Shown in pieces: positions 6,770 through 39,808 of a DNA stretch of 64,000 nt. Under the pieces are notes generated by a model, which was not told where the DNA came from, made no database searches, and saw nothing but the letters and a program-made list of their open reading frames with translations. Within the stretch, counting starts at the first letter, position 1. The number at the start of each line of letters is the position of its first letter. The translations under genes and the position numbers were made by a program. The DNA is from an uncultured bacterium. Lineage in GTDB: Bacteria > Omnitrophota > Omnitrophia > Omnitrophales > Aquincolibacteriaceae. The stretch spans positions 15,389 through 79,388 of the forward strand of contig CAZLTL010000010.1 of assembly GCA_964562525.1 (NCBI GenBank), in the 5' to 3' direction.

Positions 6770-7258
6770 ATGAAATTATTTATTGATTTATCTTCCCATA
6801 AAAAGTCGGACGAGAAGCTGTTTCCTCAGTTTCGGAAATACGCTGAGGCCGTTTTAAAGGCGCTTAATTTTAAGTCGGCCGGGCTCAGTGTGATTTTGGT
6901 GCGTGATAAGAAGATGGCCGAGCTGAATCAGAAGCTGATGAAACACAAAGGGACAACGGATGTCCTTTCATTCAGCTACATTGAGAAAAAAGGTAAGGTT
7001 AAGCTTTCTTCCAAGGTTTTGAACTCAAATCCGCCGCTTTTCCTGGGAGAGATCATCATTTGTTTGGATGTCGCTGAGCGGAATGCTCAAGAATATGGAA
7101 CCAGCTTTGAATACGAGTCCGCGCTTTATCTTTGTCACGGCATTTTGCATTGTCTTGGCTATAACGATATCAATCGTAAAGACCATGCCGAAATGCACAA
7201 GAAACAGAATCAAATTTTGAAGCATCTCGCGGTTGCGCGGAGCGCAGAGCCAAAATGA
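6770..7258 (+). CDS. ybeY: rRNA maturation endoribonuclease YbeY
   Basis: HGILHCLGYND zinc-binding motif (HxxxHxxGYxH) near the C-terminus; follows phoH. Confidence 0.8.
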   Translation: MKLFIDLSSHKKSDEKLFPQFRKYAEAVLKALNFKSAGLSVILVRDKKMAELNQKLMKHKGTTDVLSFSYIEKKGKVKLSSKVLNSNPPLFLGEIIICLDVAERNAQEYGTSFEYESALYLCHGILHCLGYNDINRKDHAEMHKKQNQILKHLAVARSAEPK

Positions 7259-25078: not shown

Positions 25079-25092
25079 CTATTTTGTTTTTG

Positions 25093-25172
25093 CTCTGCGC
25101 CGCCGGCGCAACCGCACGTTTCACTACGCCTCCTCATGCGCTTGTTTAGGCCTAGCATCTAAGACCTTTTTT
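25093..25172 (+). repeat. intergenic repeat element (GCGCC hairpin module plus GTTTCAC...GCCTAGCATC...TTTTTTGA module)
   Basis: Shares the CTCTGCGCC-N3-GGCGCAACCG hairpin with 30249, 32221 and 39737, and the ~60-bp GTTTCAC...T-run module with 6648-6745 and 11656-11750. Confidence 0.55.
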
Positions 25173-25260
25173 GAAAGAAAGGGAGATTACGTTTTTGTGA
25201 CTAAAAGCCTGAGAATCCATTCTCGCCAATCGAAGTAAATCAGGCTAAAATACCGCCCTT

Positions 25261-27228
25261 ATGAAAAGATTATTCAGCCATTGCCGACTTCAGCTTTTGT
25301 CAGCTGGAGTGATTTGTTTTTTTGGTATATCTGCTTTGCACGCCCAAACGGCTTCGTCGGGAAGCGCTCAGATTGACCCTGATTGGGAAAAAATCCGGGA
25401 TGCCCAGGTTCAAATGCTTAAAAAAAAGGAACAGGAGCTTGACCGTCTCAAGGAAGAAATTTTAAGCCGCGCACAACCCCAGACTTCCAATTCGGCGGAT
25501 TTACTTCAGGCTGAACTAAAGCAAAAAGAGCAGGCATGGACGGAGCGTATTCAAAAATACGAAAATGAAATCAGTTTGCTGCGAGTTAAGGCTGAAGATC
25601 AAAAAAAAGAAATCGATTCTTTGCGTTCTAATTCCGGGAAATCAGCAGAAATCAATCCTGCTTTGGCGGCAGCACCCGCTCTTTCCGGTCCATCAGAAGC
25701 TGCTTTAAAAGAGCGGGAAATTCAGATTCGAGCTCAGGAAAAAACTTTAGAGTCTAAAGACCAGGAGTTGATTCGTGCGCGCGCAGAGTTTGAGAAACAG
25801 TTAGCGGAGTTCGACAAAAAAATTAAATCAGAAGAAGACCGGCTTGACGATGAACGGCGCGAAATCTTGAACGGAAGGAATGCCTTAGAAACGGAAAAGC
25901 GCGCTTTGTCTGATGAGCGTAATGCAGTTAGCGCTCAAGTACAAGGGCTTAAAGAGAGCCAGAAGAAATTTGAAGATTTGCAAAATAAAGAAAAGGCTTT
26001 CGGTGAGCGCGAAGCTGCGCTCGTTCTAAAAGAAAAAACAGTAAGTGATAAATTAATCGAAGCCGCTGACCGCGAAAAGCGGATTGCGGATTCGCAAAAG
26101 CAGCTGGTGGAAGAGCGCCGCAAATGGCAGGTTGAGCGTAATCAGCTTACGGCGGATTTGGAAAAGAGATTTGCCGAAGCGGATGCCCGTTTGGAAAAAG
26201 CAGATAGCATTGATTTAGAACGCGACCGCATCCGTGCCGGATATGAGAAGCAGCTTAAAGAGATGCGTGGCGAAACTCAATATGAGAAAGACAAATTAGC
26301 TCAAAGAGAACTGGAATGGAAAGAGAAGACAAGGGAATTTGCTCAAACGCAGAATGATCTTGAGAAGCAGATTGCGGATTTGAAGGCGCAGCTTTTAGAT
26401 TCCGGAAAAACAACGGAAAAGGAAGCTGTTTTGACCCGGCAAGTGGAGGAATTGAATCAGAAGCTATTTGCGGCTGAAAATCTCAAGAAAAGCGCTGAGG
26501 CGGAGTTGATGACCGTTAAATCAAAAGTAGCGGCTCAAGCGGATCAGAGTGGCGAAACCTCAAAACTTCAAACACAAATTCAAGAGTTGCGGGATCAGCA
26601 GATTGCGCGTGAAAAAGAACTGAAAACCGAAAAAGAAGCCTATGAAAAAACAATCGCGGATCTGCGCGGACGGCTTGCCGATCGTGAAAGCGGTTTTGAG
26701 TCGAAAGAGACGGAGTTAAGTCGCAAATTGGCAGACATCGAGCAGAAATTAGCGGAATCGGAAAACAAAAAAATGTCATTGGAATCCCAAGTCAGCGATT
26801 TAAAGAGCCGTCCAATCCAGACAACCGGCGCTGATGCCCGGGATGTTGCTGATGTCTCCGCGCTCAAAAAAGAAATCGCGGCGCTTCAAATTGAGAATGA
26901 AGATTGGCGCCGGAGTCGCAGGGAAGTTGAGCAAACTTGGAGCGAATTTGTGAATCGCGAAACTCAATATCAAATGGAAATCAAGGCGCTTGAAAATCAG
27001 CTTGCGGCAGCGAGCGCCTCATCCGGAGGGCGTGATTGGAGTTCGGAAGCGAAGCGTGTTGTGGAAGAACGCCGTGCATTAAGCGATGAAAAATCGAGAA
27101 TGTACCGCGAGGTGACGCAAGAGCGCCAAAAGCTGGAACAAGAGAAAGTTGAATTTTTGCGTCATCAGCGTGAATTTGACCAATACATTAAAAAAGAGCA
27201 AGCGCGGCTTGACCGCGCGCGGCAATAG
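25261..27228 (+). CDS. secreted coiled-coil protein (655 aa, E/K/R/Q-rich)
   Basis: N-terminal signal peptide (LSAGVICFFGISALHAQ), then ~600 aa of heptad-like charged repeats; no enzymatic motif. Confidence 0.5.
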   Translation: MKRLFSHCRLQLLSAGVICFFGISALHAQTASSGSAQIDPDWEKIRDAQVQMLKKKEQELDRLKEEILSRAQPQTSNSADLLQAELKQKEQAWTERIQKYENEISLLRVKAEDQKKEIDSLRSNSGKSAEINPALAAAPALSGPSEAALKEREIQIRAQEKTLESKDQELIRARAEFEKQLAEFDKKIKSEEDRLDDERREILNGRNALETEKRALSDERNAVSAQVQGLKESQKKFEDLQNKEKAFGEREAALVLKEKTVSDKLIEAADREKRIADSQKQLVEERRKWQVERNQLTADLEKRFAEADARLEKADSIDLERDRIRAGYEKQLKEMRGETQYEKDKLAQRELEWKEKTREFAQTQNDLEKQIADLKAQLLDSGKTTEKEAVLTRQVEELNQKLFAAENLKKSAEAELMTVKSKVAAQADQSGETSKLQTQIQELRDQQIAREKELKTEKEAYEKTIADLRGRLADRESGFESKETELSRKLADIEQKLAESENKKMSLESQVSDLKSRPIQTTGADARDVADVSALKKEIAALQIENEDWRRSRREVEQTWSEFVNRETQYQMEIKALENQLAAASASSGGRDWSSEAKRVVEERRALSDEKSRMYREVTQERQKLEQEKVEFLRHQREFDQYIKKEQARLDRARQ

Positions 27229-27233
27229 GCTGA

Positions 27234-27791
27234 TTGATGGCAGTGAAAGAGAAATCGTCCGAAAAAGTATTGCTGCGAGCCCGCATCCGCAGCCTGCATT
27301 TTACCCCTTCAAAACGAAAAAAAAGCAGTCTTGCTGTTTGCCGGAAAATTGAAAAAACCACTTTTTTTCAGGATGCTCGGACAATCGGTTTTTATTCTGC
27401 TGCGAAAGATGAGCTGGATTTGTTTTCTTTGGCGGCAAAAGCGTTAAAGCTGAATAAGAAGATTTTTTTTCCGCGGGTGGTTGGAAGTAAAATCGAATTC
27501 CGCGAAGTTCGTGATTTGAAAAAAGATTTGCGCCCTGGAGCTTATCAGATTCTTGAACCCAATCCCCAAAAAACAAAAAAGCGCGTGCGGGAACCGGATT
27601 TGATTTTAGTTCCCGGTCGGGCCTTTGATTCGCAATGCAGAAGACTTGGGCGGGGTGGAGGCCATTATGACCGTTTGCTGGAGCGGTGGCATGGAAGTAC
27701 CCGCATCGGAGTGGGGTTTTGTGAACAGAAAGTACGGTATGTTCCGGTTGAGAAGCATGACATTCGCATGGATGCCGTGATTACAGGATGA
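27234..27791 (+). CDS. 5-formyltetrahydrofolate cyclo-ligase
   Basis: C-terminal DLILVPGRAFDSQCRRLGRGGGHYDRLL and HDIRMDAVIT motifs are typical of MTHFS/YgfA. Confidence 0.8.
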   Translation: MMAVKEKSSEKVLLRARIRSLHFTPSKRKKSSLAVCRKIEKTTFFQDARTIGFYSAAKDELDLFSLAAKALKLNKKIFFPRVVGSKIEFREVRDLKKDLRPGAYQILEPNPQKTKKRVREPDLILVPGRAFDSQCRRLGRGGGHYDRLLERWHGSTRIGVGFCEQKVRYVPVEKHDIRMDAVITG

Positions 27792-29014
27792 TGATGGATC
27801 TTTTTCAGCAGCAAGCCAAACGCCAAGTCTATTCTGTCAGCGATTTAAACCGTGAAATACGCGCTTGCCTTGAACCGCGCTTCGCGACCATTTGGGTTGA
27901 GGCCGAAATCTCGAATTTAAAACTACATACCTCCGGTCATATTTATTTAACTCTTAAAGATGAAAAGTCTCAGCTGAGCGCGGTTTTTTTCAGCCGTTAT
28001 AACCAGGGATTGAAGTTCCGTTTAAAAGACGGTTTAAAAGTTTTGGCTTTCGGTAAAGTTTCAGTTTATGAGCCGCGCGGTTCCTATCAGCTTTATATTG
28101 AAAAAATCCAGCCCAAGGGGATGGGCGAGCTTCAGCTTGCTTTCCTTCAGCTCAAAGAGAAATTGCAGAAAGAAGGTTTGTTTGATTCAGAGCATAAGAA
28201 ACCGATTCCGGCTTTTCCTAAAATTATCGGTGTGGTTACTTCTCCCACAGGCGCCGCGATTCAGGATATTTTAAACATTGTGAACCGCCGATTTCAGGGG
28301 GTGCATTTGATTTTAAATCCGGTTAAAGTACAGGGCGACGGCGCCGCGGAAGAAATCGCGCGGGCCATTCGGGAGTTTCAAACCATTGCGGGTGTGGATG
28401 TGCTTATCGTTGGCCGCGGCGGCGGAAGCTTGGAAGACCTTTGGGCTTTTAACGAAGAGGTTGTAGCGCGCGCGATATATGAATCACAAATTCCGGTGAT
28501 TTCCGCGGTGGGGCATGAAATTGATTGGACGATCGCGGATTTTGTTGCGGATTTACGGGCGCCGACGCCTTCGGCCGCCGCGGAGCTGGTGACTCAAAAC
28601 CAAGCGGACCTTTTACGAAAGCTGGGCGATGATTCTGAGCGAATTCAGAACGCTATGACTGGACTCTTGAGACAATACCAAGATCGGCTGGAAACTTTGG
28701 CTGAAAGCTATGCTTTTCGCGAGCCGCGCAAGCTCATTGACCAATTAGCTGAACGAGTCGATGAACAAGCCCGTCAAATGCAATCCTTTTTCCGTCATTT
28801 GCTTGAGCAGAAGGAACAAAATTGGAAACATCAAGCCGGTCGCTTGCACGCTTTAAGTCCGCTGGCGGTTTTGGACCGGGGTTATTCGATTGCTTTTGAT
28901 ACCAAAGGAAAAGTGCTTAAGAAGATCACACAGCTTAAAAAGGGTGACCGCCTTGAAACACGCCTCAAAGGCGGAAAAGTTTATTCGGAAATTACGGAAT
29001 TGAAAGCGGATTGA
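27788..29014 (+). CDS. xseA: exodeoxyribonuclease VII large subunit
   Basis: N-terminal OB-fold (IWVEAEISNLKLHTSGHIYLTLKDEKSQL), catalytic core and coiled C-terminus; 408 aa. Confidence 0.9.
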   Translation: MMMDLFQQQAKRQVYSVSDLNREIRACLEPRFATIWVEAEISNLKLHTSGHIYLTLKDEKSQLSAVFFSRYNQGLKFRLKDGLKVLAFGKVSVYEPRGSYQLYIEKIQPKGMGELQLAFLQLKEKLQKEGLFDSEHKKPIPAFPKIIGVVTSPTGAAIQDILNIVNRRFQGVHLILNPVKVQGDGAAEEIARAIREFQTIAGVDVLIVGRGGGSLEDLWAFNEEVVARAIYESQIPVISAVGHEIDWTIADFVADLRAPTPSAAAELVTQNQADLLRKLGDDSERIQNAMTGLLRQYQDRLETLAESYAFREPRKLIDQLAERVDEQARQMQSFFRHLLEQKEQNWKHQAGRLHALSPLAVLDRGYSIAFDTKGKVLKKITQLKKGDRLETRLKGGKVYSEITELKAD

Positions 29015-29061
29015 CAAGCGCGGGAGGCTTTGCCAAGCTATCCCGTTTTTGAAAGGAAAAA

Positions 29062-29364
29062 ATGAGCGAAAAATTTCAGTTTGAAAAGGCCTTGGCTGAA
29101 TTAGAAAAAATTGTGGAAGCTTTGGAAGCGGGCGAACTTTCTTTAGACGAAGCTTTAAAGCAATATGAAGAAGGCGTGAAGCTAACCCGTGCTTGCCAAG
29201 CCAAGCTGGAGGAAGCTGAGAAAAAAATTGAAATATTAACCAAGGGGTTAAACGGAGAGCTAAAAACCATGCCGTTTGAAGCAGATGCTTCAGATGACTC
29301 AGCGCCGTCCAAGAAAAAGCCGATCACAAAGAAAAAAAACAGCGAGGATGAAGATTTAATCTAA
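29062..29364 (+). CDS. xseB: exodeoxyribonuclease VII small subunit
   Basis: FEKALAELEKIVEALEAGELSLDEALKQYEEGVKL helical hairpin; follows xseA. Confidence 0.85.
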   Translation: MSEKFQFEKALAELEKIVEALEAGELSLDEALKQYEEGVKLTRACQAKLEEAEKKIEILTKGLNGELKTMPFEADASDDSAPSKKKPITKKKNSEDEDLI

Positions 29365-30197
29365 TGTCTTACACCGACTATTTTAAAAATGAATTGAAGC
29401 TGGTGAATGGATATCTTGAGCAGGAGTTGCCCGCTAAGACCCAATGTCCGCCGATGATTCATGAGGCTATGCGTTATGCGGTTCTCGGCGCGGGTAAGCG
29501 CTTCAGGCCTGTTTTGGCGTTAGCAACGGCCAAAGCTTGCGGAGGAAGTCCGAAATCAGCCCTTCCGGCGGCGGCAGCCCTGGAGCTGATACATGCCTAT
29601 TCATTGGTGCATGATGATTTGCCGGCGTTGGATAATGATGACTTTCGCCGCGGGCAGCCTTCTTGCCACAAAAAATACGGTGAAGCTATGGGGGTTTTGG
29701 CGGGGGATGGACTTTTGACCCTCGCTTTTGAATGGGTAGGCAGGATTAAGCCTGCTGAGGCTGCTATAAAGGCTTTGTCCGAGTTATCGACGGCTGCAGG
29801 AACATTTGGTATGATTGGCGGCCAAGTTGCGGATATTGCTGTCAAAGACCGGGACATGGCAATGCTGGATTACATCAGCATTCATAAAACGGGATGTCTT
29901 ATTCGGGCGGCGGCGGTGATCGGCGCTTTAAGCGCAGCGGCATCGGGTCCCGTATTGAAAAGCATTAAGAAGTACGGGGAATGCATTGGTTTGGCATTTC
30001 AAATCGCCGACGACATGAATGACTCGGACGGCTATATGAAAATGATTCCCATGGCGGATGCTGAGGAGCGAGTCAGGGATTTAATCGCGCAAGCTAAAAA
30101 AAACGTGCGTGGGCTTGGTAAGAAAGCCGACGGACTGATGTTTATTGCCAATGATTTAGTGGCCCGCATGGAATGCGATGCAGCCGCAGCCAAATAA
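29364..30197 (+). CDS. ispA: polyprenyl diphosphate synthase (farnesyl-diphosphate synthase type)
   Basis: First DDxxD motif LVHDDLPALDNDDFRRG and second FQIADDMND; classic xseB-ispA-dxs order. Confidence 0.85.
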   Translation: MSYTDYFKNELKLVNGYLEQELPAKTQCPPMIHEAMRYAVLGAGKRFRPVLALATAKACGGSPKSALPAAAALELIHAYSLVHDDLPALDNDDFRRGQPSCHKKYGEAMGVLAGDGLLTLAFEWVGRIKPAEAAIKALSELSTAAGTFGMIGGQVADIAVKDRDMAMLDYISIHKTGCLIRAAAVIGALSAAASGPVLKSIKKYGECIGLAFQIADDMNDSDGYMKMIPMADAEERVRDLIAQAKKNVRGLGKKADGLMFIANDLVARMECDAAAAK

Positions 30198-30248
30198 AAA
30201 GAAAAGTATGATGTATAAATTTATCGAACAAATCGGTAATGTCTTTGC

Positions 30249-30273
30249 CTCTGCGCAAAATGCGCAACCGGCA
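30249..30273 (+). promoter_or_regulatory. conserved hairpin motif CTCTGCGC-AAAA-TGCGCAACCGGCA, 14 nt upstream of the dxs start
   Basis: One of four copies of CTCTGCGCC-N3-4-GGCGCAACCG(G)CA in this window (25093, 30249, 32221, 39737). Stem conserved, loop variable. Confidence 0.5.
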
Positions 30274-30287
30274 ATCTAAAAATTTCT

Positions 30288-32195
30288 ATGTATAAGTTTA
30301 TCCAAAATATTAACTCTCCTGAAGATTTGAAGAAGATTCCTCTGGAGAAGCTTCCTGAAGTCGCGGAAGAGTACCGCCACTTTTTGATTGAAACAGTTTC
30401 CAAGACCGGCGGACACTTGGGCGCAAGTCTCGGCGCGTTAGAACTGAATATGGCGCTGCATTATGTCCTCGAATCGCCACAAGATAAAATTTGCTGGGAT
30501 GTCGGACATCAGGCTTATGTGCATAAATTGATTACCGGCCGCCGTGACCGTTTTTCTACTCTGCGTAAGACAGAGGGGATTAGCGGATTTCCTTCACCGT
30601 TTGAAAATGAACATGATCATTTTATTGTCGGTCATGCCGGAACTGCGATTGCTCAGGCTGTGGGACTTGCCGCGGCGCGTGATCATCTTAAGACCCATGA
30701 AAAAGTAGTTGCGGTGGTCGGTGACGGAGCCATGACAGCGGGGCTTTCTTATGAAGCCTTGAATAACGCGGGGCATCTCAAAAAAGAAATGCTCATTGTT
30801 TTAAATGACAATGAAATGTCGATCGCGAAAAATGTCGGTGCGATCAGCAAGTATTTGAATAAGGTTATTACGAACCCTGTTTATAACCGCATTCGTTCGG
30901 ATGTGGAGCATCAGCTTGATAAATTTCCGCGTTTACGCAAACTCGCCGCGCAGTCACTTGAAAGCATGAAGCATCTTTTTGTTCCGGGTATTTTATTTGA
31001 AGAATTGGGGTTCCGGTATTTTGGTCCTGTGGACGGTAATGATGTCGTTGGGTTAGTTCAGACTTTGCGACATGTTTTACCGCTGAAAGAGTGCGCGCTT
31101 TTACACATCATTACCAAAAAAGGAAATGGATGTCCTTATGCCGAACAAGATGTTGAAAAAGGGCATGGTGTCACGCCGTTTAACACGAAAACAGGCGAAA
31201 AGATTTTAAGTGTCTCCGAAAAAGCAGCGGTAGGGCAAATCAGCTATACCAAGGCCTTTGCGAATGCGTTATCCGAAGTCGCGCGCAAAGATCCAAAGGT
31301 GATTGCAATTACCGCGGCCATGCCTACGGGCACCGGCTTAAATGAGTTTCAAAAAGAATTTCCGGACCGTCTTTATGATGTGGGTATCGCAGAACAGCAT
31401 GCCGTGACTTTTGCCGGCGCTTTATCCAAAGCCGGGCTGAAGCCGGTTTGCGCGATTTACTCCACTTTTTTACAGCGGTCGCAAGATCAGATTTTGCATG
31501 ATGTCGCTTTACAAAGACAGCGTACTGTTCTTGCCATGGACCGCGCCGGGTTGGTGGGTGCGGACGGAGCAACGCATAACGGAGTTTTTGATATCAGTTA
31601 TTTAGGCCATGTTCCCAATGTCGTGATTGCGGCGCCGATTAACGCTTACGAAATGAAGCAAATGTTGGAGATGGGTGTCGAGTATCCGCACACTTTTGCA
31701 ATACGTTATCCGCGCGGTAACATTCCTGTTTCGCATGCGGCTGTTCCTCAGGAGAAATTTGAAATCGGCAAAGGTCAAATTTTGTCGGAAGGCAAAGATG
31801 GAACTCTTTTAGCTTTGGGCAGTATGGTGGAGATTGCGCTGCAGGTTCGCGATTTACTCAAAGCTTCGGGCGTGCAAGTGCGTGTGGTGAATATGCGTTT
31901 TGCAAAGCCTTTGGACGGCGCCTTGATTTTAGACAGTTTGGATAAATCAAAATATCTTTTTACTTTGGAAGAGCATGTGCTCGCCGGCGGATTCGGCGCA
32001 AAGGTGTTGGAATTTTTGGAACGCAATCAAAAAGATGATGCCGTTGTTCGCCGCTTTGCTTTACCGGATGAATTTATTGAGCAGGGTGACCGTGATTATC
32101 ATTATGAACGGATTGGGCTTTCTCCCGAAAAAATTACTGCTTCCATTCTTCAGACTTTGAATTCATCTTCCCATACTCAGCCCCTTGTCCGCTGA
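30288..32195 (+). CDS. dxs: 1-deoxy-D-xylulose-5-phosphate synthase
   Basis: 635 aa; TPP-binding GGHLGASLGALEL and GDGAMTAG motifs; transketolase-like C-terminal domains. Confidence 0.95.
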   Translation: MYKFIQNINSPEDLKKIPLEKLPEVAEEYRHFLIETVSKTGGHLGASLGALELNMALHYVLESPQDKICWDVGHQAYVHKLITGRRDRFSTLRKTEGISGFPSPFENEHDHFIVGHAGTAIAQAVGLAAARDHLKTHEKVVAVVGDGAMTAGLSYEALNNAGHLKKEMLIVLNDNEMSIAKNVGAISKYLNKVITNPVYNRIRSDVEHQLDKFPRLRKLAAQSLESMKHLFVPGILFEELGFRYFGPVDGNDVVGLVQTLRHVLPLKECALLHIITKKGNGCPYAEQDVEKGHGVTPFNTKTGEKILSVSEKAAVGQISYTKAFANALSEVARKDPKVIAITAAMPTGTGLNEFQKEFPDRLYDVGIAEQHAVTFAGALSKAGLKPVCAIYSTFLQRSQDQILHDVALQRQRTVLAMDRAGLVGADGATHNGVFDISYLGHVPNVVIAAPINAYEMKQMLEMGVEYPHTFAIRYPRGNIPVSHAAVPQEKFEIGKGQILSEGKDGTLLALGSMVEIALQVRDLLKASGVQVRVVNMRFAKPLDGALILDSLDKSKYLFTLEEHVLAGGFGAKVLEFLERNQKDDAVVRRFALPDEFIEQGDRDYHYERIGLSPEKITASILQTLNSSSHTQPLVR

Positions 32196-32220
32196 CATGT
32201 GTTCCTTCCTTTTTTTTAGC

Positions 32221-32245
32221 CTCTGCGCCATCGGCGCAACCGGCA
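32221..32245 (+). promoter_or_regulatory. conserved hairpin motif CTCTGCGCC-ATC-GGCGCAACCGGCA, 22 nt upstream of the nadK start
   Basis: Same motif family as 30249-30273; the flanks are conserved as well as the stem. Confidence 0.5.
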
Positions 32246-32267
32246 AAAGCACAGTGCTTATCCAATT

Positions 32268-33140
32268 ATGAAAAATTTAAAAATAAAGACGGTAGCTCTC
32301 TTCGTCAATAAGCAGAAAACCGGCGCGGCGGGGTTAAGCGGCCAAATTCAGACCTTCCTTGAAAAGCAAAAGATTAAAGTCAAAAGCTCCATTGATTGTG
32401 ATGCCCAGACCTGCCTTCAGAATGCTGATTTGGCGGTGAGCCTGGGCGGTGACGGAACTATTTTAGCTTTAGCGCGCGAAATGAAAAAACGCTCCGTACC
32501 TGTTTTGGGAATTAATTTAGGGCGGTTAGGTTTTTTAACTGAAGTGCGTCCGGCTGAAATGATCCAGGAATTGAAAGCTTGTTTGGCCGGCGAACTTAAA
32601 ATTGAAAAGCGGATGATGTTGGAATGCCGCTTACAAAGCAAAAAACATCAGGTTGATCGCAAACTTGTCGCCTTAAACGATATGGTAATCAGCCGCGAGG
32701 GCGTTTCCCGTTTAGCCGCGATTGATATTTTGGTTTCAGGCAAAACTTTGGCTGCGTTTCGTGGAGATGGGGTGATTCTTGCGACTCCGACAGGGTCGAC
32801 GGCCTATTCTCTTTCCGCCGGTGGGGCGGTGGTGCATCCCGAAGTGGATTCAATCATGATTACGCCGATTTGTCCGCATGCTTCGAGTATGCATCCGACC
32901 ATTATTCCCGCGAATGAGAAAATCGCCATCGCGATCCGCCGAGAAAGACGCGATGCAAAAGCCGTTCTCACCGCCGATGGTCAAGAAATTGTAGAAGTGG
33001 ACGATAGTTTTAGTATCGAGGTGACGCGCTTTAAATTGCCTTTCAGGCTGGTTAAAAGCAGTCACCGGAATTATTACGAAACGATTAGAAAACATTTACA
33101 CTTTTCGAGTATTCACCATGGCACGACTCCTGATTATTGA
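32268..33140 (+). CDS. nadK: NAD(+) kinase
   Basis: GGDGTILALAREM and NDMVISREGVSRLAAID; the PTGSTAYSLSAGG motif is diagnostic for NadK. Confidence 0.9.
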   Translation: MKNLKIKTVALFVNKQKTGAAGLSGQIQTFLEKQKIKVKSSIDCDAQTCLQNADLAVSLGGDGTILALAREMKKRSVPVLGINLGRLGFLTEVRPAEMIQELKACLAGELKIEKRMMLECRLQSKKHQVDRKLVALNDMVISREGVSRLAAIDILVSGKTLAAFRGDGVILATPTGSTAYSLSAGGAVVHPEVDSIMITPICPHASSMHPTIIPANEKIAIAIRRERRDAKAVLTADGQEIVEVDDSFSIEVTRFKLPFRLVKSSHRNYYETIRKHLHFSSIHHGTTPDY

Positions 33141-33489
33141 TGACGAAAAAATGATTTGCCAAGAATTCTGCGAAACAATGAATGAAATGGGGCATCAAAC
33201 CGATTTTGCTTTGAACGGCGATGATGCTTTAAGAAAAATCGAAGCCACTCCTTATCAGCTTGTTTTTTTGGATCTTTCTATGCCGCGCATGAATGGAGCG
33301 GATGTGTATAAGAAGATTCTGGAAGTACGGCGTGTACCCGTCACTTTTATGACTGGATTTATGTCGCCTGCCACCGAAAGGGAAGTGATGTCGATGGGAG
33401 CTTTGCGTTGTTTGCGTAAACCCGTGGATCTTTCCGAAGTGGTGCATTTGATCGACCGCCTTGATTCGTTCGATTCTCAGGTTAATTAA
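33118..33489 (+). CDS. single-domain response regulator (CheY-like receiver)
   Basis: LLIIDDE...LVFLDLSMPRMNG... receiver-domain acidic pocket and phospho-acceptor Asp context; 123 aa, no output domain. Confidence 0.8.
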   Translation: MARLLIIDDEKMICQEFCETMNEMGHQTDFALNGDDALRKIEATPYQLVFLDLSMPRMNGADVYKKILEVRRVPVTFMTGFMSPATEREVMSMGALRCLRKPVDLSEVVHLIDRLDSFDSQVN

Positions 33490-33502
33490 GAGCGTTTTCT
33501 CC

Positions 33503-34861
33503 ATGTCCTCAACTCCCTTACCTCCGGCACCTATTTGCGTTCGTTTTGCGCCTTCACCGACGGGACGTTTGCATATCGGCGGAGTCCGTACGGCACTTTT
33601 TAATTATCTTTATGCTCGTCAGCAAGGCGGAAAATTTGTCCTGCGAATTGAGGACACTGACCGCGAAAGATCCGAGAAACAATACGAAGACGAAATTCTT
33701 TTTTCCATGCGCTGGCTGGGTTTGGAATGGGACGGGGAACCGATTCGCCAAAGCGAAAGATTGCCCCGTTATCAAGAAGCCGCCGCGGAATTAATCGCTA
33801 AAGGGTTAGCTTACGAGTCTATTGAAGAAGGCAAGAAGGCTGTGCGCTTTCGTATGCCAAAGCAGATAGTGAAATTTAAAGACAGTGTCCATGATGACGT
33901 GTCGTTTGATTCTTCGCTTTGGGAAGATTTAGTGATTATGAAATCCGACGGCTATCCCACTTATCATTTTGCCGTGGTTGTGGATGATCATGATATGGGA
34001 ATTACGCATGTGATCCGCGGCGACGACCACCTTACCAATACGCCCAAACACATTCTGCTTTATCTTGCCTTCGGCTGGAAACCGCCCAAATATGCGCATT
34101 TGCCTTTGATTATGGGCACGGATGGAACCCCGCTCTCCAAGCGCCATGGCGCGGTGGCGGCATCGGATTACCGCGAGCAAGGGTATTTGGCGCAAGCCAC
34201 GCTCAATTATCTGGCGCTTTTGGGTTGGGGGCCCGAGGGCAATGAAGAAATTTTTAATTTGCCGCAATTGGTTAAAAAGTTTTCGCTGAAAAGAATTACC
34301 AAATCAAACTCCCGTTTTAATCCCGAAAAATTTTTGTGGCTGAACAGCCAGCATCTGAAAAATATGCCTGATGATGAATACGCCCGCGGAATGACTGAAT
34401 ACTGGGCGGAGCGAAATATTTCTTCCTCTGCGGCTTCGCCGCAACCGGGTTGGACTAAGCATCCCAACTGGGATAAAATTTTAAAGCTGTATAAGACGCG
34501 CGCGCGCAATTGGAAGGACTTGGAAGTTCAGGCGGGCTATGTTTTTCAAAAAGATTTAGATCTTGATCCGGTCATTTGTTCTGAAATGACCGCGGATGCG
34601 CATGCTGTGGCGGGGGTGAAGGCTTGGGCGGAAAAAGCTCAGGGCATGAGTTTTGACGATCCAATGAAGCTTGAGCAAATGACGCGGGAATTAGCCGAAA
34701 GTTTAGGCGTGAAACCGGCGGTGTTGATTCATCCCTTACGGTTTGCTGTTTCAGGCACGAAGGTCACCCCGGGATTGTTTGAGCTGATGCAGGTGATTGG
34801 TAAAGAAACATGTTTGAACCGAATTCAAATTTTACTTGGGAAAGCTTCCCAAACCGCCTAA
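33503..34861 (+). CDS. gltX: glutamate--tRNA ligase
   Basis: RFAPSPTGRLHIGGVRTAL (HIGH) and LSKRHG (KMSKS-like). ORF track opens at 33461; the ATG at 33503 (MSSTPLPP) is the likelier start. Confidence 0.9.
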   Translation: MSSTPLPPAPICVRFAPSPTGRLHIGGVRTALFNYLYARQQGGKFVLRIEDTDRERSEKQYEDEILFSMRWLGLEWDGEPIRQSERLPRYQEAAAELIAKGLAYESIEEGKKAVRFRMPKQIVKFKDSVHDDVSFDSSLWEDLVIMKSDGYPTYHFAVVVDDHDMGITHVIRGDDHLTNTPKHILLYLAFGWKPPKYAHLPLIMGTDGTPLSKRHGAVAASDYREQGYLAQATLNYLALLGWGPEGNEEIFNLPQLVKKFSLKRITKSNSRFNPEKFLWLNSQHLKNMPDDEYARGMTEYWAERNISSSAASPQPGWTKHPNWDKILKLYKTRARNWKDLEVQAGYVFQKDLDLDPVICSEMTADAHAVAGVKAWAEKAQGMSFDDPMKLEQMTRELAESLGVKPAVLIHPLRFAVSGTKVTPGLFELMQVIGKETCLNRIQILLGKASQTA

Positions 34862-34942
34862 ATCTTAGGCTTGTTCCCGCATCTCCGTGCCGATATAATC
34901 TCCAACTTTCCGGAACTCATTTTTTAAGAGGTTTGACCATAT

Positions 34943-35824
34943 ATGATTCGCAGCATGACTTGTTTTTCACGGGGAAGCCGCAGCTTTGCTGGCCGTAATT
35001 GGAATTTTGAGCTCAAGTCAGTTAATCAAAAATATTTTGAGCTTGCATTAAGACTTCCGCAGATTTTAACTCCTTATGAGAATGACATCCGCAATTTAGT
35101 ACATGCTTCGATTGAACGGGGTAAGGTTACGTTAACGATGTCCGACTCTGAAGAGCCCACGGGCGAAGTGAAACAGGTATTGAACCAAAACCAGATAGAT
35201 TATTATCTTTCCGTTTCAGATAAGCTGCGCAAAGAGCATGGTCTGACCGGAGAACTGCAAGTGAATGATTTGCTCCGATTGCCCGGGACGATTCATGACG
35301 CGGCGTCCGAGGCAAAAAAAGTGGAATGGAAAGAGCTTGAGAAAGCTTTGCAGAGCTTGCTCAAAGAAGCATTGGCGAACCGTGAAGAGGAAGGAAAGCG
35401 TTTGGCTGCGGATATCTCGGAACGCTTGGCTATAATTCAAAAGCTTGCGGTTAAAATTGAAACTGCCGCGAAGAAAAATGTCCGGCATTCGTTTGAAAAT
35501 TTAAAAAAGCGCATGGTTGAAATCTTGCGCGAAAGCGGAGCTACCGCTGATCCCGACCGGATTTACCGTGAAGCCGCAATTGTGGCGGAGCGCAGTGATA
35601 TTACGGAGGAAGTGGTTCGCATGAAAAGCCACTTGGCTCTCTTCTTGGGTAAAATGAAATTGGCTTCAGCGGTTGGCCGTTCGCTTGATTTTATTTGTCA
35701 GGAGATGCACCGCGAGGCGAACACGATGGGTTCTAAGGCGCAGCTGTTTGAGATTTCCAAAGAAGTGATTCAGCTGAAATCCGAAATCGAAAAAATTCGC
35801 GAACAGGTACAAAACATTGAGTAA
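34943..35824 (+). CDS. yicC: YicC-family stress-induced protein (UPF0701)
   Basis: MIRSMTCFSRGS... N-terminus and C-terminal DUF1732-like region; conserved yicC-gmk-rpoZ order. Confidence 0.8.
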   Translation: MIRSMTCFSRGSRSFAGRNWNFELKSVNQKYFELALRLPQILTPYENDIRNLVHASIERGKVTLTMSDSEEPTGEVKQVLNQNQIDYYLSVSDKLRKEHGLTGELQVNDLLRLPGTIHDAASEAKKVEWKELEKALQSLLKEALANREEEGKRLAADISERLAIIQKLAVKIETAAKKNVRHSFENLKKRMVEILRESGATADPDRIYREAAIVAERSDITEEVVRMKSHLALFLGKMKLASAVGRSLDFICQEMHREANTMGSKAQLFEISKEVIQLKSEIEKIREQVQNIE

Positions 35825-36386
35825 AGGTTTGGCAGTTATCATTTCGTCACCCTCCGGCGGCGGAAAAACGACCGTGGTGGATGAGCTTTTAAAAAAGCAT
35901 TCGGATTGGATGCGTTCGATTTCTATGACGACGCGGGCTCCGCGAGCGGGGGAAGTGCATGGGCGCGATTATTTTTTTTCAACTAGCAAAGACTTTGATG
36001 ATCTTAAAGAGCGCGGAGGATTGCTGGAAAGCGCCCAGGTTCATTTGAACCAATACGGTACACCTAGGGCGTTCGTAGAAGAAAAAGTTAGCGCCGGGCA
36101 TGTGGTTTTTTTGACCGTGGATGTGCAGGGCGCCGATAAAATTAAGCGGGTTTGGCAGGGGAAAGATGGCTTAATCAGCATTTTTATCATGCCTTTATCC
36201 GTGGATGTGCTCCGGCAAAGGCTTTTAAGGCGCAATACAGAGAAACCTGAGCAAATTGAGGTGCGTTTGGCCGCCGCCGAGCAGGAAATGAAACAGGCTC
36301 CACATTATGACTTTACCGTGTATAATCATGACCTTGAACAAACTGTGGCGGATATCGAACGGATTATCCTGCAGAAACTGAAATAA
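35817..36386 (+). CDS. gmk: guanylate kinase
   Basis: P-loop SPSGGGKTT and SISMTTRAPRAGEVHGRDYFF GMP-binding motif. Confidence 0.9.
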   Translation: MSKGLAVIISSPSGGGKTTVVDELLKKHSDWMRSISMTTRAPRAGEVHGRDYFFSTSKDFDDLKERGGLLESAQVHLNQYGTPRAFVEEKVSAGHVVFLTVDVQGADKIKRVWQGKDGLISIFIMPLSVDVLRQRLLRRNTEKPEQIEVRLAAAEQEMKQAPHYDFTVYNHDLEQTVADIERIILQKLK

Positions 36387-36396
36387 GGAGTAACGA

Positions 36397-36618
36397 ATGA
36401 CTTACGTGCCTCTCGAAAAGTTGCTGGCTAAAAAAGATTCCAGCGTATTTAAGACCGCTTTGCTTGCCGCGCAGCGCGCGAATGAACTTGCTTGCGGAGC
36501 TCAGCCTTTAACTCAGGCTTCTACGACCAAGGTTTCCACGATTGCTCTCGAAGAAATCGCGCATAACCGCGTTTGGTATGTTGAAGAACCCGTTGCAAAG
36601 GGCAAAGACTCTGAGTAA
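36397..36618 (+). CDS. rpoZ: DNA-directed RNA polymerase subunit omega
   Basis: 73 aa, KTALLAAQRANEL core motif; follows gmk. Confidence 0.8.
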   Translation: MTYVPLEKLLAKKDSSVFKTALLAAQRANELACGAQPLTQASTTKVSTIALEEIAHNRVWYVEEPVAKGKDSE

Positions 36619-37159
36619 GAAGAAAGTCGTCCACATCCTTTCGGGGAGCATTGCCGCGTATAAGGCCCCCGAAATCAGCGAACGTCTGCGGCAGTCCGGT
36701 TTGGATGTAACCTGTGTTCTGACCGCAGCGGCTAAGAAGTTTGTTACTGTCGACACATTACGCGCTTTGAGCGGTAATCCGGTTTATGATGACATGTGGC
36801 TGCTGAATTCGCCTCATGATGTTCTGCATACGGCACTTGCCGATTCCGCGGATTTAATCCTTGTTGCTCCGGCATCGGCGGATTTTCTGGCGCGAGCTTC
36901 AAACGGAATGGCGAATGATTTAGCGGCCTGTGTTTTGCTTGCTTCCCAAGCCCCTGTATGGTGGGTTCCGGCGATGAATGACAATATGTACAAAAATCCG
37001 CTGACCCAAGCCAATATCGAGAAACTCAAGAAAGCCGGTCATCATTTTATTGCTCCCGTTGAAGGTTATTTAGCTTGCGGCAGAACTGCCATCGGACACA
37101 TCGCTGATACTGACACGATTGTGAAGTCCGTAACTCAAGCTTTAGCTGCAGGAAAATAA
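36581..37159 (+). CDS. coaC: phosphopantothenoylcysteine decarboxylase (CoaC flavoprotein), encoded separately from CoaB
   Basis: KKVVHILSGSIAAYKAPEISERL matches the Dfp N-terminal flavin-binding motif (KKIxLGVxGGIAAYK). Start chosen at ATG 36581 (MLKNPLQRAKTLSKKK...); ORF track frame opens at 36542. Confidence 0.75.
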   Translation: MKNPLQRAKTLSKKKVVHILSGSIAAYKAPEISERLRQSGLDVTCVLTAAAKKFVTVDTLRALSGNPVYDDMWLLNSPHDVLHTALADSADLILVAPASADFLARASNGMANDLAACVLLASQAPVWWVPAMNDNMYKNPLTQANIEKLKKAGHHFIAPVEGYLACGRTAIGHIADTDTIVKSVTQALAAGK

Positions 37160-37168
37160 GAGATTTTC

Positions 37169-37867
37169 GTGAAATCCTCGCGATTGCGCACGGCGCAACA
37201 TTCTTCCAATAATAAAATCAAAAAACTTTTGATTACCGCGGGTCCTACCCGTGAAATGCTCGATCCCGTGCGTTTTATTTCCAATCTTTCGACGGGTGAA
37301 TTAGGTTACAAACTTGCCCGGCTTGCGGTGAAAAAAGGTTACGACGTTACTTTGATCAGCGGGCCTACGGCTTTGAAGCCTATTGCCGGTGCGAAGCATG
37401 TCGCGGTTGTAAGTTCCGAGGATATGCGCGTTGCTTGTCTGAAGCATTTTAAAGACAGTGATGCTCTGATTATGACCGCGGCGGTTGCTGATTTTACGCC
37501 CGCGCACCGCGAGCGCCAAAAAATCAAGCGGCGTGAAACGCAATCGGTTGTTTTAAAAAGAACCAAAGATATTTTGGCGGAGTTGGGACCGATCAAAGGG
37601 AGTCGGCTTGTGATTGGATTTTGTTTAGAAACCGAGAAGTGGCTGGAGTATGCCAAGTTAAAGCTTCTTAAGAAAAAAATGACCGGCATCGTGGCGAATT
37701 ACTACGAACCCGGAAAAGTTTGCCCTTTTGGACATAACCCGATGACTTCGGTTTTTATGGACTCGGATCTTCGTACCCGTAAGCACTCGAATCTCTCAAA
37801 GTTGAGCATGGCCAAGAAGATATTGAGTTGGATGGAAGAGCTATCTGCCGCGCAAAAAAATCTTTGA
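37169..37867 (+). CDS. coaB: phosphopantothenate--cysteine ligase (CoaB), separate ORF
   Basis: LLITAGPTREMLDPVRFISNLSTGELGYKLA matches the CoaB domain of Dfp; GTG start 9 nt after the coaC stop. Confidence 0.8.
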   Translation: MKSSRLRTAQHSSNNKIKKLLITAGPTREMLDPVRFISNLSTGELGYKLARLAVKKGYDVTLISGPTALKPIAGAKHVAVVSSEDMRVACLKHFKDSDALIMTAAVADFTPAHRERQKIKRRETQSVVLKRTKDILAELGPIKGSRLVIGFCLETEKWLEYAKLKLLKKKMTGIVANYYEPGKVCPFGHNPMTSVFMDSDLRTRKHSNLSKLSMAKKILSWMEELSAAQKNL

Positions 37868-38003
37868 TTTTCAAAGCTGACCTTATATCATAATCCCGAT
37901 TTTGGCAACCTTTTGAGTTGTTGCCGTCTCATTTTATGTGAATAAAAAGCCCGGGGCTTTTCGTCTTAATAGCAGAGTTTATTTTTAACGGAGGTTAAAG
38001 AGT

Positions 38004-38474
38004 ATGCGTGTTTATCAGAAATCATTAAGTTTGCTTTTTGCCGGTGTTTTGCTTTTTAGTGGCTGCGCCACGGAATCAGGCGGAATCACAGAACGTGAAT
38101 CAGGTGCTTTATTGGGTGCCGGATTGGGTGCCGGTCTTGGTGCTTTGGCCGGAGCCGCAACGGGTAATGCCGGTGTGGGAACCGCGATTGGCGCGGGTGC
38201 GGGTGCTTTGACAGGTGCGATCGCGGGTGAAGCGGCGCGGCGTCAAAAAGAAAATACTAAACGCGAAATTCGTCAGGAAATGATGCAGCAGCAGTATCAG
38301 CCGCAGTATGCGCCGCAAGCTTACCAGCAACCTGTTCAGCAGCAGCCGGTTTATAACCAAACTGCGCAGGCACCTGAGCTTCACACGAAGTATAATCCGC
38401 GGACAGGTCAGACTTTCCCCGGTAGTTTTACTTTTGACCCTGCGACGGGTGAGCAGCTCAAGAATCTTCAGTAA
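38004..38474 (+). CDS. lipoprotein with glycine-zipper domain and Q/P-rich C-terminus
   Basis: Lipobox LLFSGC; GAGLGAGLGALAGAATGNAGVGTAIGAGAGALTGAIAG glycine zipper; QQQYQPQYAPQAYQQPVQQQPVY low-complexity tail. Confidence 0.5.
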   Translation: MRVYQKSLSLLFAGVLLFSGCATESGGITERESGALLGAGLGAGLGALAGAATGNAGVGTAIGAGAGALTGAIAGEAARRQKENTKREIRQEMMQQQYQPQYAPQAYQQPVQQQPVYNQTAQAPELHTKYNPRTGQTFPGSFTFDPATGEQLKNLQ

Positions 38475-38486
38475 GTTCGGTCCTTT

Positions 38487-39593
38487 TTGAAACCTTTGCA
38501 GTCTCCTATCCGAATCGGTATTTTAACTTCGGGAGGAGACTGCCCTGGTTTGAATGCCGTTATTCGCGCTGTCGTTAAAACGGCTCGTTGTGCTTACGGG
38601 ATGGAAGTGTTTGGAATAGAAGACGGCTATTTAGGATTGATTGAAAAGCGCGGACACCTTTTAGATCGTCATGATGTTTCCGGAATTCTTCATTTAGGCG
38701 GGACAATTTTAGGTACGGATAATCGTGCTAACCCTTTTCGTGTTCCGATCAAACGCGGCAAGAAAATTATTTTTGAAGACCGCTCCGATGAGGTGATCAA
38801 GCATTTGCGGGAATTAGGAATTGATGTCTTGATTGCTGTGGGTGGTGATGGAACTCTTTCGATTGCGAACAAACTTTCAAAAAAGGGAGTTCGTGTGATC
38901 GGGATTCCTAAAACCATCGATAATGATTTGAGCTGCACCGATTATACTTTTGGATTTGATACGGCAGTTTCGATTACTACCGAAGCGCTTGACCGTCTGC
39001 ATACCACGGCGGCATCGCATCATCGTGTGATGATTCTTGAAGTGATGGGACGCAATGCAGGCTGGATTGCGCTTTATGCCGGATCTGCGGGCGGCGCGGA
39101 CGTCATATTGATTCCGGAAATTCCTTTTAGCGTGAATAAAATATGTGACGTGGTTATGGAAAGAGCGCTGCATACCAAGCGTTATTCGTTGATTGTGGTT
39201 GCGGAAGGCGCTAAGGAGAAGGGGAAGAAGGCGATTGAAAAAGCCCCGGACAAACTTAATCCTTATCCGACTAAGCTTGGTGGCGTGGGTGAATATTTAA
39301 GGCAGCGCATTGAAAAGGCAACCGGTCTTGAGACGCGTGCTGCGAATCTTGGGCATATTCAGCGCGGTGGATCACCGACTCCGTATGACCGCAACTTGGG
39401 GACTTTGTTCGGTAAAACAGCGATCGACTTAGTCGCGCAGAAAAAATGGAATCATATGGTGGGTTTTGTGGGAAACCAAATCAAGGCGTTTCCGATTGAG
39501 AAAGCTGTGAGTAAGATCAAAACCGTACCGTTGAATCATCGGTTGATCGAATCGGGTAAGGCTATTCAGATTTCTTTTGGAAGTCATTTTTAA
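38487..39593 (+). CDS. pfkA: 6-phosphofructokinase (PFK-A family)
   Basis: GILTSGGDCPGLNAVIRAVV, GGDGTLSIA, PKTIDNDL, MGRNAGWIALYAG and HIQRGGSPTPYDR motifs. G104-equivalent Gly retained (ATP-type); K at the 124-equivalent position. Confidence 0.85.
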   Translation: MKPLQSPIRIGILTSGGDCPGLNAVIRAVVKTARCAYGMEVFGIEDGYLGLIEKRGHLLDRHDVSGILHLGGTILGTDNRANPFRVPIKRGKKIIFEDRSDEVIKHLRELGIDVLIAVGGDGTLSIANKLSKKGVRVIGIPKTIDNDLSCTDYTFGFDTAVSITTEALDRLHTTAASHHRVMILEVMGRNAGWIALYAGSAGGADVILIPEIPFSVNKICDVVMERALHTKRYSLIVVAEGAKEKGKKAIEKAPDKLNPYPTKLGGVGEYLRQRIEKATGLETRAANLGHIQRGGSPTPYDRNLGTLFGKTAIDLVAQKKWNHMVGFVGNQIKAFPIEKAVSKIKTVPLNHRLIESGKAIQISFGSHF

Positions 39594-39651
39594 AAAGCAG
39601 TTTTTTTTAATGCCCGAAAGAGTTATCATTCGTTCTCATTTTTATTGATTC

Positions 39652-39723
39652 GGCGCGGTAGCAAAGTGGTAATGCACGGCTCTGCAAAAGCTGTATTCGG
39701 GAGTTCGATTCTCCCCCGCGCCT
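39652..39723 (+). tRNA. tRNA-Cys (anticodon GCA)
   Basis: Hand-folded: acceptor GGCGCGG/CCGCGCC, anticodon stem CGGCT/AGCTG (one G-U) with loop CTGCAAA, T-arm GGGAG-TTCGATT-CTCCC, discriminator T. Confidence 0.75.
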
Positions 39724-39736
39724 CGATTTCTTTCGG

Positions 39737-39760
39737 CTCTGCGCCTTTGGCGCAACCGCA
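39737..39760 (+). promoter_or_regulatory. conserved hairpin motif CTCTGCGCC-TTT-GGCGCAACCGCA immediately 3' of tRNA-Cys
   Basis: Fourth copy of the CTCTGCGCC-N-GGCGCAACCG family. Confidence 0.5.
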
Positions 39761-39770
39761 GTTTATGCCC

Positions 39771-39808
39771 GGGTGGCGAAATTGGCAGACGCAACGGACT
39801 TAAAAGCT
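39771..39808 (+). pseudogene. 5' half of a tRNA-Leu(UAA) (acceptor 5' strand, D-arm, 5' anticodon stem and loop) with no matching 3' half
   Basis: GCCCGGGTGGCGAAATTGGCAGACGCAACGGACTTAAAA matches the tRNA-Leu 5' half through the anticodon loop CTTAAAA. The following GCTGA cannot pair with ACGGA, and no 3' exon (..TCCGT..GGTTCGA..CCCGGGCA) occurs in the next 0.8 kb. Confidence 0.5.

Follow-up and report, generated by a model that had tools for sequence, protein, structure and literature searches.

Interspersed hairpins in a subgroup of Omnitrophota resemble REP-type miniature palindromic elements

Seven copies of one hairpin in a 64-kb stretch

The Omnitrophota comprise uncultured bacteria, most of them ultra-small, whose genomes are compact. 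In a 64-kb stretch of Omnitrophota DNA, hereafter the window, a short hairpin recurs next to tRNA genes, dxs and nadK and within housekeeping genes. The Dxs encoded here matches a protein on a 94-kb NCBI contig at 100% identity, and its named relatives belong to Candidatus Omnitrophica/Omnitrophota. The initial annotation had noted four copies, at 25093–25114, 30249–30273, 32221–32245 and 39737–39760, and all four are confirmed, as are their positions 14 nt 5′ of dxs, 22 nt 5′ of nadK (both counted to the ATG) and 12 nt 3′ of tRNA-Cys. A pattern search of the window (CTCTGCGC-N5-GCGCAACCG, at most two mismatches) gave six plus-strand matches where 0.03 were expected, a number reached by none of 100 shuffles. 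With a covariance model (CM, R1) of the hairpin, built after the pattern search and used on the window and on further loci, we detected exactly seven copies with scores of 34–51 bits, separated by a gap of ∼20 bits from the next best match (13.7 bits). Six copies start on the plus strand, at 13516, 25093, 30249, 32221, 34426 and 39737, and one on the minus strand, at 7249; those beyond the four already noted are 13516 (CTCTGCGTCttcGGCGCAACCG), 34426 (CTCTGCGGCttcGCCGCAACCG) and the reverse copy at 7231–7249. Six of the seven are in sense orientation, four between and two within genes; the seventh is antisense and lies at a gene junction. Loci with L numbers represent DNA of relatives or metagenome contigs that carry the hairpin or share synteny; all DNA at hand consists of genome fragments.

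The highest-scoring copy (32211..32250, plus strand; 51.4 bits) lies in the dxs–nadK spacer, with its start 25 nt past the stop codon of dxs and its end 22 nt short of the nadK ATG at 32268. Copy 30249 (30239..30278, plus strand; 42.7 bits) occupies the ispA–dxs spacer, 14 nt 5′ of the dxs ATG at 30288. Where the initial description gives a conserved stem TGCGCC/GGCGCA, copy 30249 has TGCGCA/TGCGCA with a loop of AAA rather than AAAA, so that a compensatory C:G to A:T change is found already within the window. Orthologues of this copy in L119, L120 and L168 have altered stems and loops. Upstream of dxs lies a mini-open reading frame (mini-ORF) of 23 codons (30208–30279; MMYKFIEQIGNVFASAQNAQPAI followed by a stop). 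It duplicates the start of the Dxs protein (MYKFIQNI...), and the frame in which it reads the hairpin is that of all intragenic copies. This duplication is common to L119 and L168, not to L120, and may be the relic of an insertion into the 5′ end of dxs followed by duplication of the start region.

Two copies follow tRNA sequences. Copy 25093 (25083..25122, plus strand; 48.5 bits) lies 14 nt 3′ of a duplicated tRNA-Arg 3′ end, and its counterparts in relatives sit 13–14 nt past tRNA-Arg proper. The duplication comprises the last 18 nt of tRNA-Arg(CCU) (24765–24782), repeated 296 nt further on at 25061–25078; the ∼278 nt between the repeats are missing in L119 and L120, where the hairpin directly follows the tRNA, and the repeat looks like the scar of a small insertion with an att-like duplication. 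Copy 39737 (39727..39766, plus strand; 48.6 bits) begins 12 nt 3′ of tRNA-Cys (39652–39724) and fills most of the 41-nt spacer to a truncated tRNA-Leu(UAA). Only the 5′ half of this tRNA is present (39766–39804; no ARAGORN call), and its 3′ half was not found in the window. Behind it, ∼800 nt of AT-rich non-coding DNA extend to ∼40600, and then come regulator-like genes including a Crp-family gene (40844–41593), an arrangement that suggests a rearrangement or island junction in the region from 39766 to ∼40600.

The three remaining copies lie within genes or at a gene junction and indicate that the family, first described as intergenic, is not purely so. The uvrA copy (13506..13545, plus strand; 43.9 bits) reads CTCTG CGTC ttc GGCG CAACCGG, with one G.U pair, and has an orthologous copy in L173. 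At the boundary of the catalytic and anticodon-binding domains of gltX, copy 34426 (34416..34455, plus strand; 43.6 bits) shows a C:G to G:C swap in its stem and is read as SSAASPQPG; it is kept in L119, L120 and L168, where it is decaying at the DNA level. The reverse copy (7222..7259, core 7231–7249, minus strand; 34.4 bits) is located at the ybeY/recO junction (Pfam YbeY/RecO) and has a 5-bp inner stem, shorter than the others (CTCTG CGC tcc GCG CAACCG). Its opposite strand codes for the C-terminal tail of YbeY, the complementary A-tract reaches the recO ATG at 7255, and an orthologous copy is present in L158.

Structure, position and orientation of the unit

The unit consists of a T-rich tract and two stacked helices, an outer one of 3 bp or more and an inner one of 6 bp, with a conserved 2×3 internal loop (UC/ACC) between them and usually a triloop at the tip; it has the consensus 5′-TTTT-N-S-C/UC/UG-NNNN-(loop of 3–5)-NNNN-CA/ACC/G-S-N-3′. 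Its core measures 24–26 nt, or ∼35 nt counting the T-tract. The conserved flanks CTCT and AACCG noted initially are present, but the unit extends outward beyond them to the T-tract and the outer helix. The latter is formed by C:G, a covarying S:S and an N:N pair. Among 59 copies from a flank-only search (CTCTG-N9-14-CAACCG, pairing not demanded), position −4 pairs with +5 in 53 (G:C 26, C:G 24; permutation p<1e-4) and −5 with +6 in 36 (p = 0.003). The CM alignment gives C:G 30 and G:C 29 at −4:+5, and CCTC heads in 30 and GCTC heads in 29 of 65 copies; the first base of the SCTC head is paired. The adjoining C(−3):G(+4) pair is otherwise invariant, with a single double change from C:G to U:A (L168 5901). 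The inner helix (5–7 bp) starts with invariant U-A and G-C pairs, followed by three to four variable, compensating pairs. The loop has 3 nt in 51/65 copies, and the unpaired 3-nt tail is invariantly ACC.

Pairing statistics support maintenance of the hairpin by structure rather than sequence, bearing out the initial proposal of selection for structure. In an ungapped alignment of 40 sequences, 92.8% of pair cells are paired, compared to 78.6% in shuffles (none of 500 reaches the observed value) and 22–42% in slid registers. Double compensatory changes occur at 5/9 pairs in this alignment and at 7/9 pairs in the alignment of 67 CM hits. RNAfold gives the two-helix fold for 5/7 window copies (−9.6 to −14.3 kcal/mol). 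This fold also forms under DNA parameters; the uvrA copy with its G.U pair folds as RNA, not as DNA. Mismatches are of the G.U type in 15 and of the A.C type in 12 cases, favouring neither strand. Rfam covariance models at the gathering score returned only tRNAs in the window and 13 loci, and at E≤10 nothing relevant around copy 25093. Two further resemblances were set aside: tRNA-minihelix mimicry (hairpin plus A-CC), as the stem has only 6 bp and nothing further supports it, and a likeness to the 5′ region of 4.5S RNA, which is coincidental.

Most copies across the loci are intergenic, ∼12% are truly intragenic, and about four fifths are co-oriented with the local genes. Orientation follows the genes in L008, and inside L031 it switches together with the direction of the genes, which speaks against a link to replication. 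Forward copies usually start 9–20 nt past the stop codon of the preceding gene or behind a terminator-like hairpin with T-tract, and tRNA-adjacent copies lie 9–14 nt past tRNA-Arg, tRNA-Cys and tRNA-Trp or 31 nt past tRNA-Asn. Roughly eight out of ten reverse copies are found immediately 5′ of a start codon with the A-tract adjoining, namely before recO in the window, tuf (L134), gyrB (L035) and atpG (L124), and also in L031, L054, L166 and L170. One rule fits both orientations: the element lies 3′ of a T-tract on whichever strand has one. T is strongly enriched at positions −9 to −6 (34–47 of 59 flank-only copies) and not at +7 to +16, i.e., 3′ of the hairpin. Some copies do lie inside genes, as a random distribution would give, but a positional bias exists and is tied to T-tracts at gene ends.

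Scans for sigma-70-like promoters and terminator-like sites gave totals at shuffle level and no site on any copy. Sigma-54, sigma-70 and ECF (extracytoplasmic function) promoters do not fit in spacing and sequence, and a terminator is contradicted by the T-tract, which stands 5′ of the hairpin and not 3′ as in intrinsic terminators. A TAAT-like “−10 box” 5′ of some copies was rejected, since in several cases it is the stop codon TAA of the preceding gene plus the T-tract, and A stands at the second position in only 19/59 copies.

Turnover, in-frame insertions and distribution

Comparison with relatives revealed copies that are present in one genome and missing in another. L119, with a Dxs 97% identical to that of the window, has three of the five window copies of the shared region, and the head of two of these differs by a point change. 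In place of copies 32221 and 39737 it has unrelated spacers, of ∼200 nt in the case of the tRNA-Cys/tRNA-Leu spacer. This L119 spacer contains another hairpin (GCAATTCGCCtttGGCAAATTGC, 19545–19580), whose inner stem, loop and 3′ GCAGTT are identical to copy 39737 and whose outer arms are different. Copy 32221 is also missing from L120 and L121, where dxs abuts nadK; ispA overlaps dxs in L121. Where copies are kept at orthologous sites, the flanks are conserved and stems and loops vary: the loops after tRNA-Arg are gcc, tttgc, gta, gtg and taa, and the stem in the ispA–dxs spacer is CGCA/TGCG in the window versus TGC/GCA in L168.

The coding copies represent clean in-frame insertions. That in uvrA corresponds to eight codons (SASSAQPA) which are missing from 11/11 aligned UvrA homologues, one of them 81% identical; the filled allele reads CTT CTT at the place of the T-rich codons GTT TTA of the empty allele in L189. 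The Dxs of L168, 86.6% identical to that of the window, has a perfect copy in its inter-domain linker, where the window and L119 lack the 14-residue segment and L120 has a decayed copy, and it also carries a C-terminal insertion of 10 codons, T-tract included. Altogether, in-frame copies were found in the coding regions of UvrA, Dxs, GltX, NuoL, AtpD, AtpG and the C-terminus of AtpB. All seven independent copies lying deep within genes in sense orientation share one frame, TCT-Gxx-...-CAA-CCG, encoding S-A-x-x-x-Q-P (chance ∼(1/3)^6), likely because only this frame yields a benign linker.

The flank-only search returned 61 matches in 287 kb of Omnitrophota-like DNA versus ∼0.8 expected, and the CM 67 matches in 277 kb of loci. 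The CM detected no copy in the syntenic locus L121 (21.8 kb), which comes from a relative whose Dxs is 74% identical. We scanned GTDB, with one genome per species, for CTCTGCG-N7-CGCAACCG; among the matches listed, the sole multi-copy genomes are two Omnitrophota metagenome-assembled genomes (MAGs). The many Collinsella matches stem from one conserved coding segment without hairpin, and most other high-GC matches are conserved coding segments or chance, with the fraction of perfect stems that chance predicts. A metagenome scan anchored on a single stem variant yielded 67 loci, and those of low GC content (0.42–0.48) hold extra copies with different stems. Locally, copies number seven in 7 kb (L134), seven in 3.1 kb (L147), four (L124) or three in 1 kb (L158). 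The density is ∼1 per 9 kb and higher in the sampled ribosomal-protein, tuf and ATP-synthase regions. Most copies are singletons; head-to-tail pairs occur in L147 (2257/2296), L027, L002 and L031, and one tail-to-tail pair in L158. L130, a metagenome contig with 54% GC, contains two hairpins within a ∼105-nt tandem direct repeat with near-identical flanks (96–222).

In Rhodobacterales, the same module (gcCTCTG-stem-loop-stem-CAACCGgc) follows a stop codon, a GC hairpin and a T-rich tract. Here it opens a dispersed ∼130-nt repeat, in which it is followed by GCTCGGG...GCCTCCGGCGGGGATAT and a long inverted repeat. Rhodobacter sp. SGA-6-6 (L057) harbors two inverted copies, at 3118–3250 and 5075–5209, around WrbA-like and PfkB-like genes; others are found in Pseudogemmobacter (L111, ∼7900–8000), L131 (∼6690–6760), L153 and L139/L154, and copies of this type in three metagenome contigs have differing neighbour genes. 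The hosts differ in GC content (46% in Omnitrophota, 65–70% in Rhodobacterales), and a T/U-tract always precedes the module. Its occurrence in both groups points to recognition machinery shared between phyla or to a common origin of the module.

In the literature searched, we found no interspersed repeat family reported for Omnitrophota. The RepRanger paper does not mention Omnitrophota, and a search for the hairpin sequence itself retrieved unrelated primers only.

A REP-like element and its alternatives

We regard the hairpins as a miniature interspersed palindromic element of the REP (repetitive extragenic palindromic) type in a subgroup of Omnitrophota, with a probability of about 0.6. The initial annotation had offered a REP-like element as one alternative, and this is what fits the evidence best: a covarying structure, a multi-copy and lineage-restricted spread, presence or absence among close relatives, clean in-frame insertions, and biases of frame and orientation. 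New copies would arise by insertion or copy-replacement beside T-rich tracts, which would place forward copies just past stop codons, terminator U-tracts and tRNA 3′ ends, and reverse copies just before A-rich start-codon regions. Insertions into coding regions would survive only in the frame that encodes a harmless Ser/Ala/Pro/Gln linker. The fixed head (SCTC) and tail (ACC-G) of the hairpin may be recognised by a putative hairpin-specific single-strand enzyme, for which an HUH/Y1-transposase-like protein, as proposed for REPs, is a candidate model. Such an enzyme would bind the hairpin foot and direct oriented insertion next to T-tracts; the CT dinucleotides of the head could be its cleavage sites. 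As most copies appear to be co-transcribed with the flanking genes, they would fold in the mRNA (−10 to −14 kcal/mol) and may secondarily serve as 3′-end stabilisers or processing barriers.

The closest known relatives are the REP superfamilies, in which an unpaired 4-nt head (CGTC, with variants TGTC and CCTC) precedes a stem-loop and a 3-nt tail; this head/stem-loop/tail architecture is shared by the GTAG and CGTC superfamilies, and REPs of the CGTC class are located after ORFs, have intragenic copies in uvrA and tRNA-synthetase genes, and have no dedicated transposase (Di Nocera et al. 2013, PMC3733652). The Omnitrophota hairpin likewise combines a 4-nt head, stem, short loop, stem and unpaired 3-nt tail, with stems and loops that are heterogeneous within the family and may include G.T pairs. 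It also lies mostly just 3′ of ORFs, between unidirectional or convergent genes, occurs within uvrA and a tRNA-synthetase gene, and has no known associated transposase gene. In contrast to the CGTC class, the head is (G/C)CTC, of which only the CCTC half (30/65) equals a reported variant, the stem has 5–7 bp starting with U-A and G-C instead of 8–9 bp starting with two A-T pairs, the loop has mostly 3 nt instead of 4–5, and the tail is ACC(G) instead of CCA. Moreover, the first head base and the post-tail bases form a covarying outer helix, the upstream T-tract is obligatory, copies are singletons or head-to-tail pairs rather than head-to-head dimers, and the host phylum is a different one.

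With the GTAG-type REPs and REPINs, the element has in common GC-rich hairpins of 20–40 nt, which are probably high in copy number and presumably transcribed with the flanking genes, and a conserved single-stranded tag at the hairpin foot. However, GTAG is absent from both strands of the Omnitrophota consensus, inverted doublets are lacking, and the DNA searched (∼340 kb) shows no RAYT homologue. Due to these differences from both superfamilies, we treat the element as a new REP-like variant and not as a member of either family; in our best reading, it is closest to the “CGTC/CCTC-tagged” superfamily. It also agrees with REPs in general in being a stem-loop of 20–40 nt that is predominantly extragenic and near ORF 3′ ends. 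REP-like repeats typically number more than 100 copies dispersed in one genome; the corresponding figures here, which come from genome fragments only, are seven in the 64-kb window and up to seven in 3–7 kb (L147, L134).

Resemblances extend to two further systems. Rickettsia palindromic elements (RPEs) share the palindromic form, the in-frame insertion into housekeeping genes, the strong frame bias and presumably the tolerance in surface loops, but RPE-1 is 100–150 bp long, whereas the Omnitrophota insert has 24–30 nt (8–10 codons) and is mostly intergenic. Members of the IS200/IS605 family (IS608, ISDra2) have a recognised subterminal hairpin and insert in an oriented manner 3′ of a short target without evident target duplication, as the Omnitrophota element, with its T-tract as the target, would do by a similar mechanism. 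Unlike its single-hairpin unit, these elements span 1–2 kb, carry a tnpA gene and have ends formed by two different hairpins. A likeness to CRISPR repeats (type I-E, ...AAACCG) was rejected, given variable stems and irregular spacing.

Several observations weigh against a REP-like element. Neither a transposase nor another partner protein was detected; a phmmer search (E≤10) with RayT of E. coli gave no match among 1852 ORF segments, which were drawn from the window and loci and cover only ∼340 kb of many genomes, and this is weak negative evidence. The predominance of singletons and head-to-tail pairs is unlike the inverted dimers of REPINs and BIMEs. Filled and empty intergenic sites do not differ by a clean insertion, as the entire spacer differs, and the inserted unit disagrees between uvrA (24 nt, with the T-rich codons pre-existing) and the C-terminus of Dxs (30 nt, T-tract included). 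Moreover, conservation at the orthologous ispA–dxs and tRNA-Arg sites is higher in the motif than around it, and ∼80% of copies are in sense orientation, both of which would be equally expected of an RNA signal selected by the host; the wobble asymmetry, in turn, shows no strand preference (G.U 15 versus A.C 12).

Such a host-selected signal is the alternative that survives best, and still an unlikely one. According to it, a conserved protein that binds or processes RNA recognises the U-tract and the two-helix hairpin of mRNA and tRNA precursors as operon “punctuation”. If, for instance, an enzyme of the RNase E type cut within the U-tract, the upstream RNA would have a protected 3′ end and the downstream RNA would be protected by its 5′ hairpin; intragenic copies would be by-products. 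This would account for the sense bias and its flip with the genes inside L031, for copies in the tuf, secE-nusG-rplKAJL, ATP-synthase and tRNA spacers, and for conserved nucleotides in the internal loop, but not for copies in seven unrelated coding regions in one frame only, nor for reverse copies, from which the same RNA flanks are impossible. Compensatory stem changes and conservation above the spacer at orthologous sites point to a selected RNA, as does the same module 3′ of terminators in Rhodobacterales, whereas presence and absence at 97% Dxs identity, and the lack of any copy in the 74% relative with the same gene order, do not. The uvrA copy folds as RNA and not as DNA, but G.U mismatches are not in excess over A.C overall, and distances to start codons range from 14 to >400 nt. 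REP-like insertion and an RNA signal are not mutually exclusive, and inserted REPs are known to act as RNA elements.

It is distinctly doubtful, if conceivable in view of the Rhodobacterales copies, that C-UC-UG ... CA-ACC-G is the recognition site of a putative horizontally distributed machinery, an insertion enzyme or an RNA-processing factor. This could be a new hairpin-specific single-strand insertion enzyme moving ∼24–30 nt beside T-tracts, or a conserved RNA-processing factor that uses the hairpin as operon and tRNA punctuation.

We consider a dedicated role in the 5′ untranslated region, as proposed initially, improbable. Such a translational or regulatory element would offset a missing Shine-Dalgarno sequence of the downstream gene, and indeed no obvious Shine-Dalgarno sequence is seen at dxs and nadK, whose ATGs follow the hairpin at 14 and 22 nt, respectively; several other copies lie 15–36 nt before starts. 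These distances are short because the spacers themselves are short (72–90 nt), and other copies precede genes with good Shine-Dalgarno sequences (L068, tuf, gyrB), follow tRNAs or stop codons in convergent spacers, are reversed, or lie within seven housekeeping genes. The nadK copy, like that at tRNA-Cys, is missing at 97% Dxs identity, and in the more distant L120 and L121 dxs and nadK abut their upstream genes, leaving the ispA–dxs and dxs–nadK junctions spacerless.

Very improbable, too, is a double-stranded DNA site for a dimeric regulator, also raised initially, for a nucleoid protein, or for a promoter or terminator. The palindromic core, the location at gene boundaries and the T-rich flanks would suit such a site, but the stem covaries while its sequence is not conserved, the flanks lack symmetry (CTC versus ACCG), and an outer helix broken by an asymmetric loop is a feature of a single-strand fold. 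Furthermore, no sigma-70-like or terminator-like site falls on the copies, the T-tract is upstream of the hairpin, and sense copies lie inside essential genes.

We give hardly any credence to a DNA uptake sequence or a replication-oriented (Chi- or KOPS-like) signal: six of the seven window copies are on the plus strand and the coding copies are biased in frame, as is known for uptake sequences, but the hairpin interior varies with no fixed 9–12-mer, the density is only ∼1 per 9 kb, and orientation tracks the local genes (L031, L008) rather than one replichore.

A REP-like element of this kind would offer a lead to the mechanism that spreads the “transposase-less” REP class. It adds linkers of 8–10 Ser/Ala/Pro/Gln residues to the essential proteins UvrA, Dxs, GltX, NuoL and AtpB/D/G, and thereby offers a natural test of which protein loops can accept an insertion. 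Its copies may serve as markers for strain typing and MAG curation; they also mislead annotation, giving rise to artefacts such as over-extended ORFs and the mini-ORF 5′ of dxs.

A second conserved non-coding module of ∼80 nt, GTTTCACTACGSCTCC...GCGCTTG...GCCTnGCATCT...TTTTTGA, is found in the window 5′ of uvrA (11668–11752) and directly after copy 25093 (25115–25180), and elsewhere in L119 (4806–4870), L120 (4496–4560) and L068 (2395–2480, minus strand). This module (GTTTCACTACG...) has no Rfam match, and its consensus fold is weakly supported. Downstream of copy 25093, the window encodes a protein of 655 residues without Pfam match (25261–27228); at the syntenic position of L121 (391–6942) lies a protein, likewise without Pfam match, of 2183 residues.

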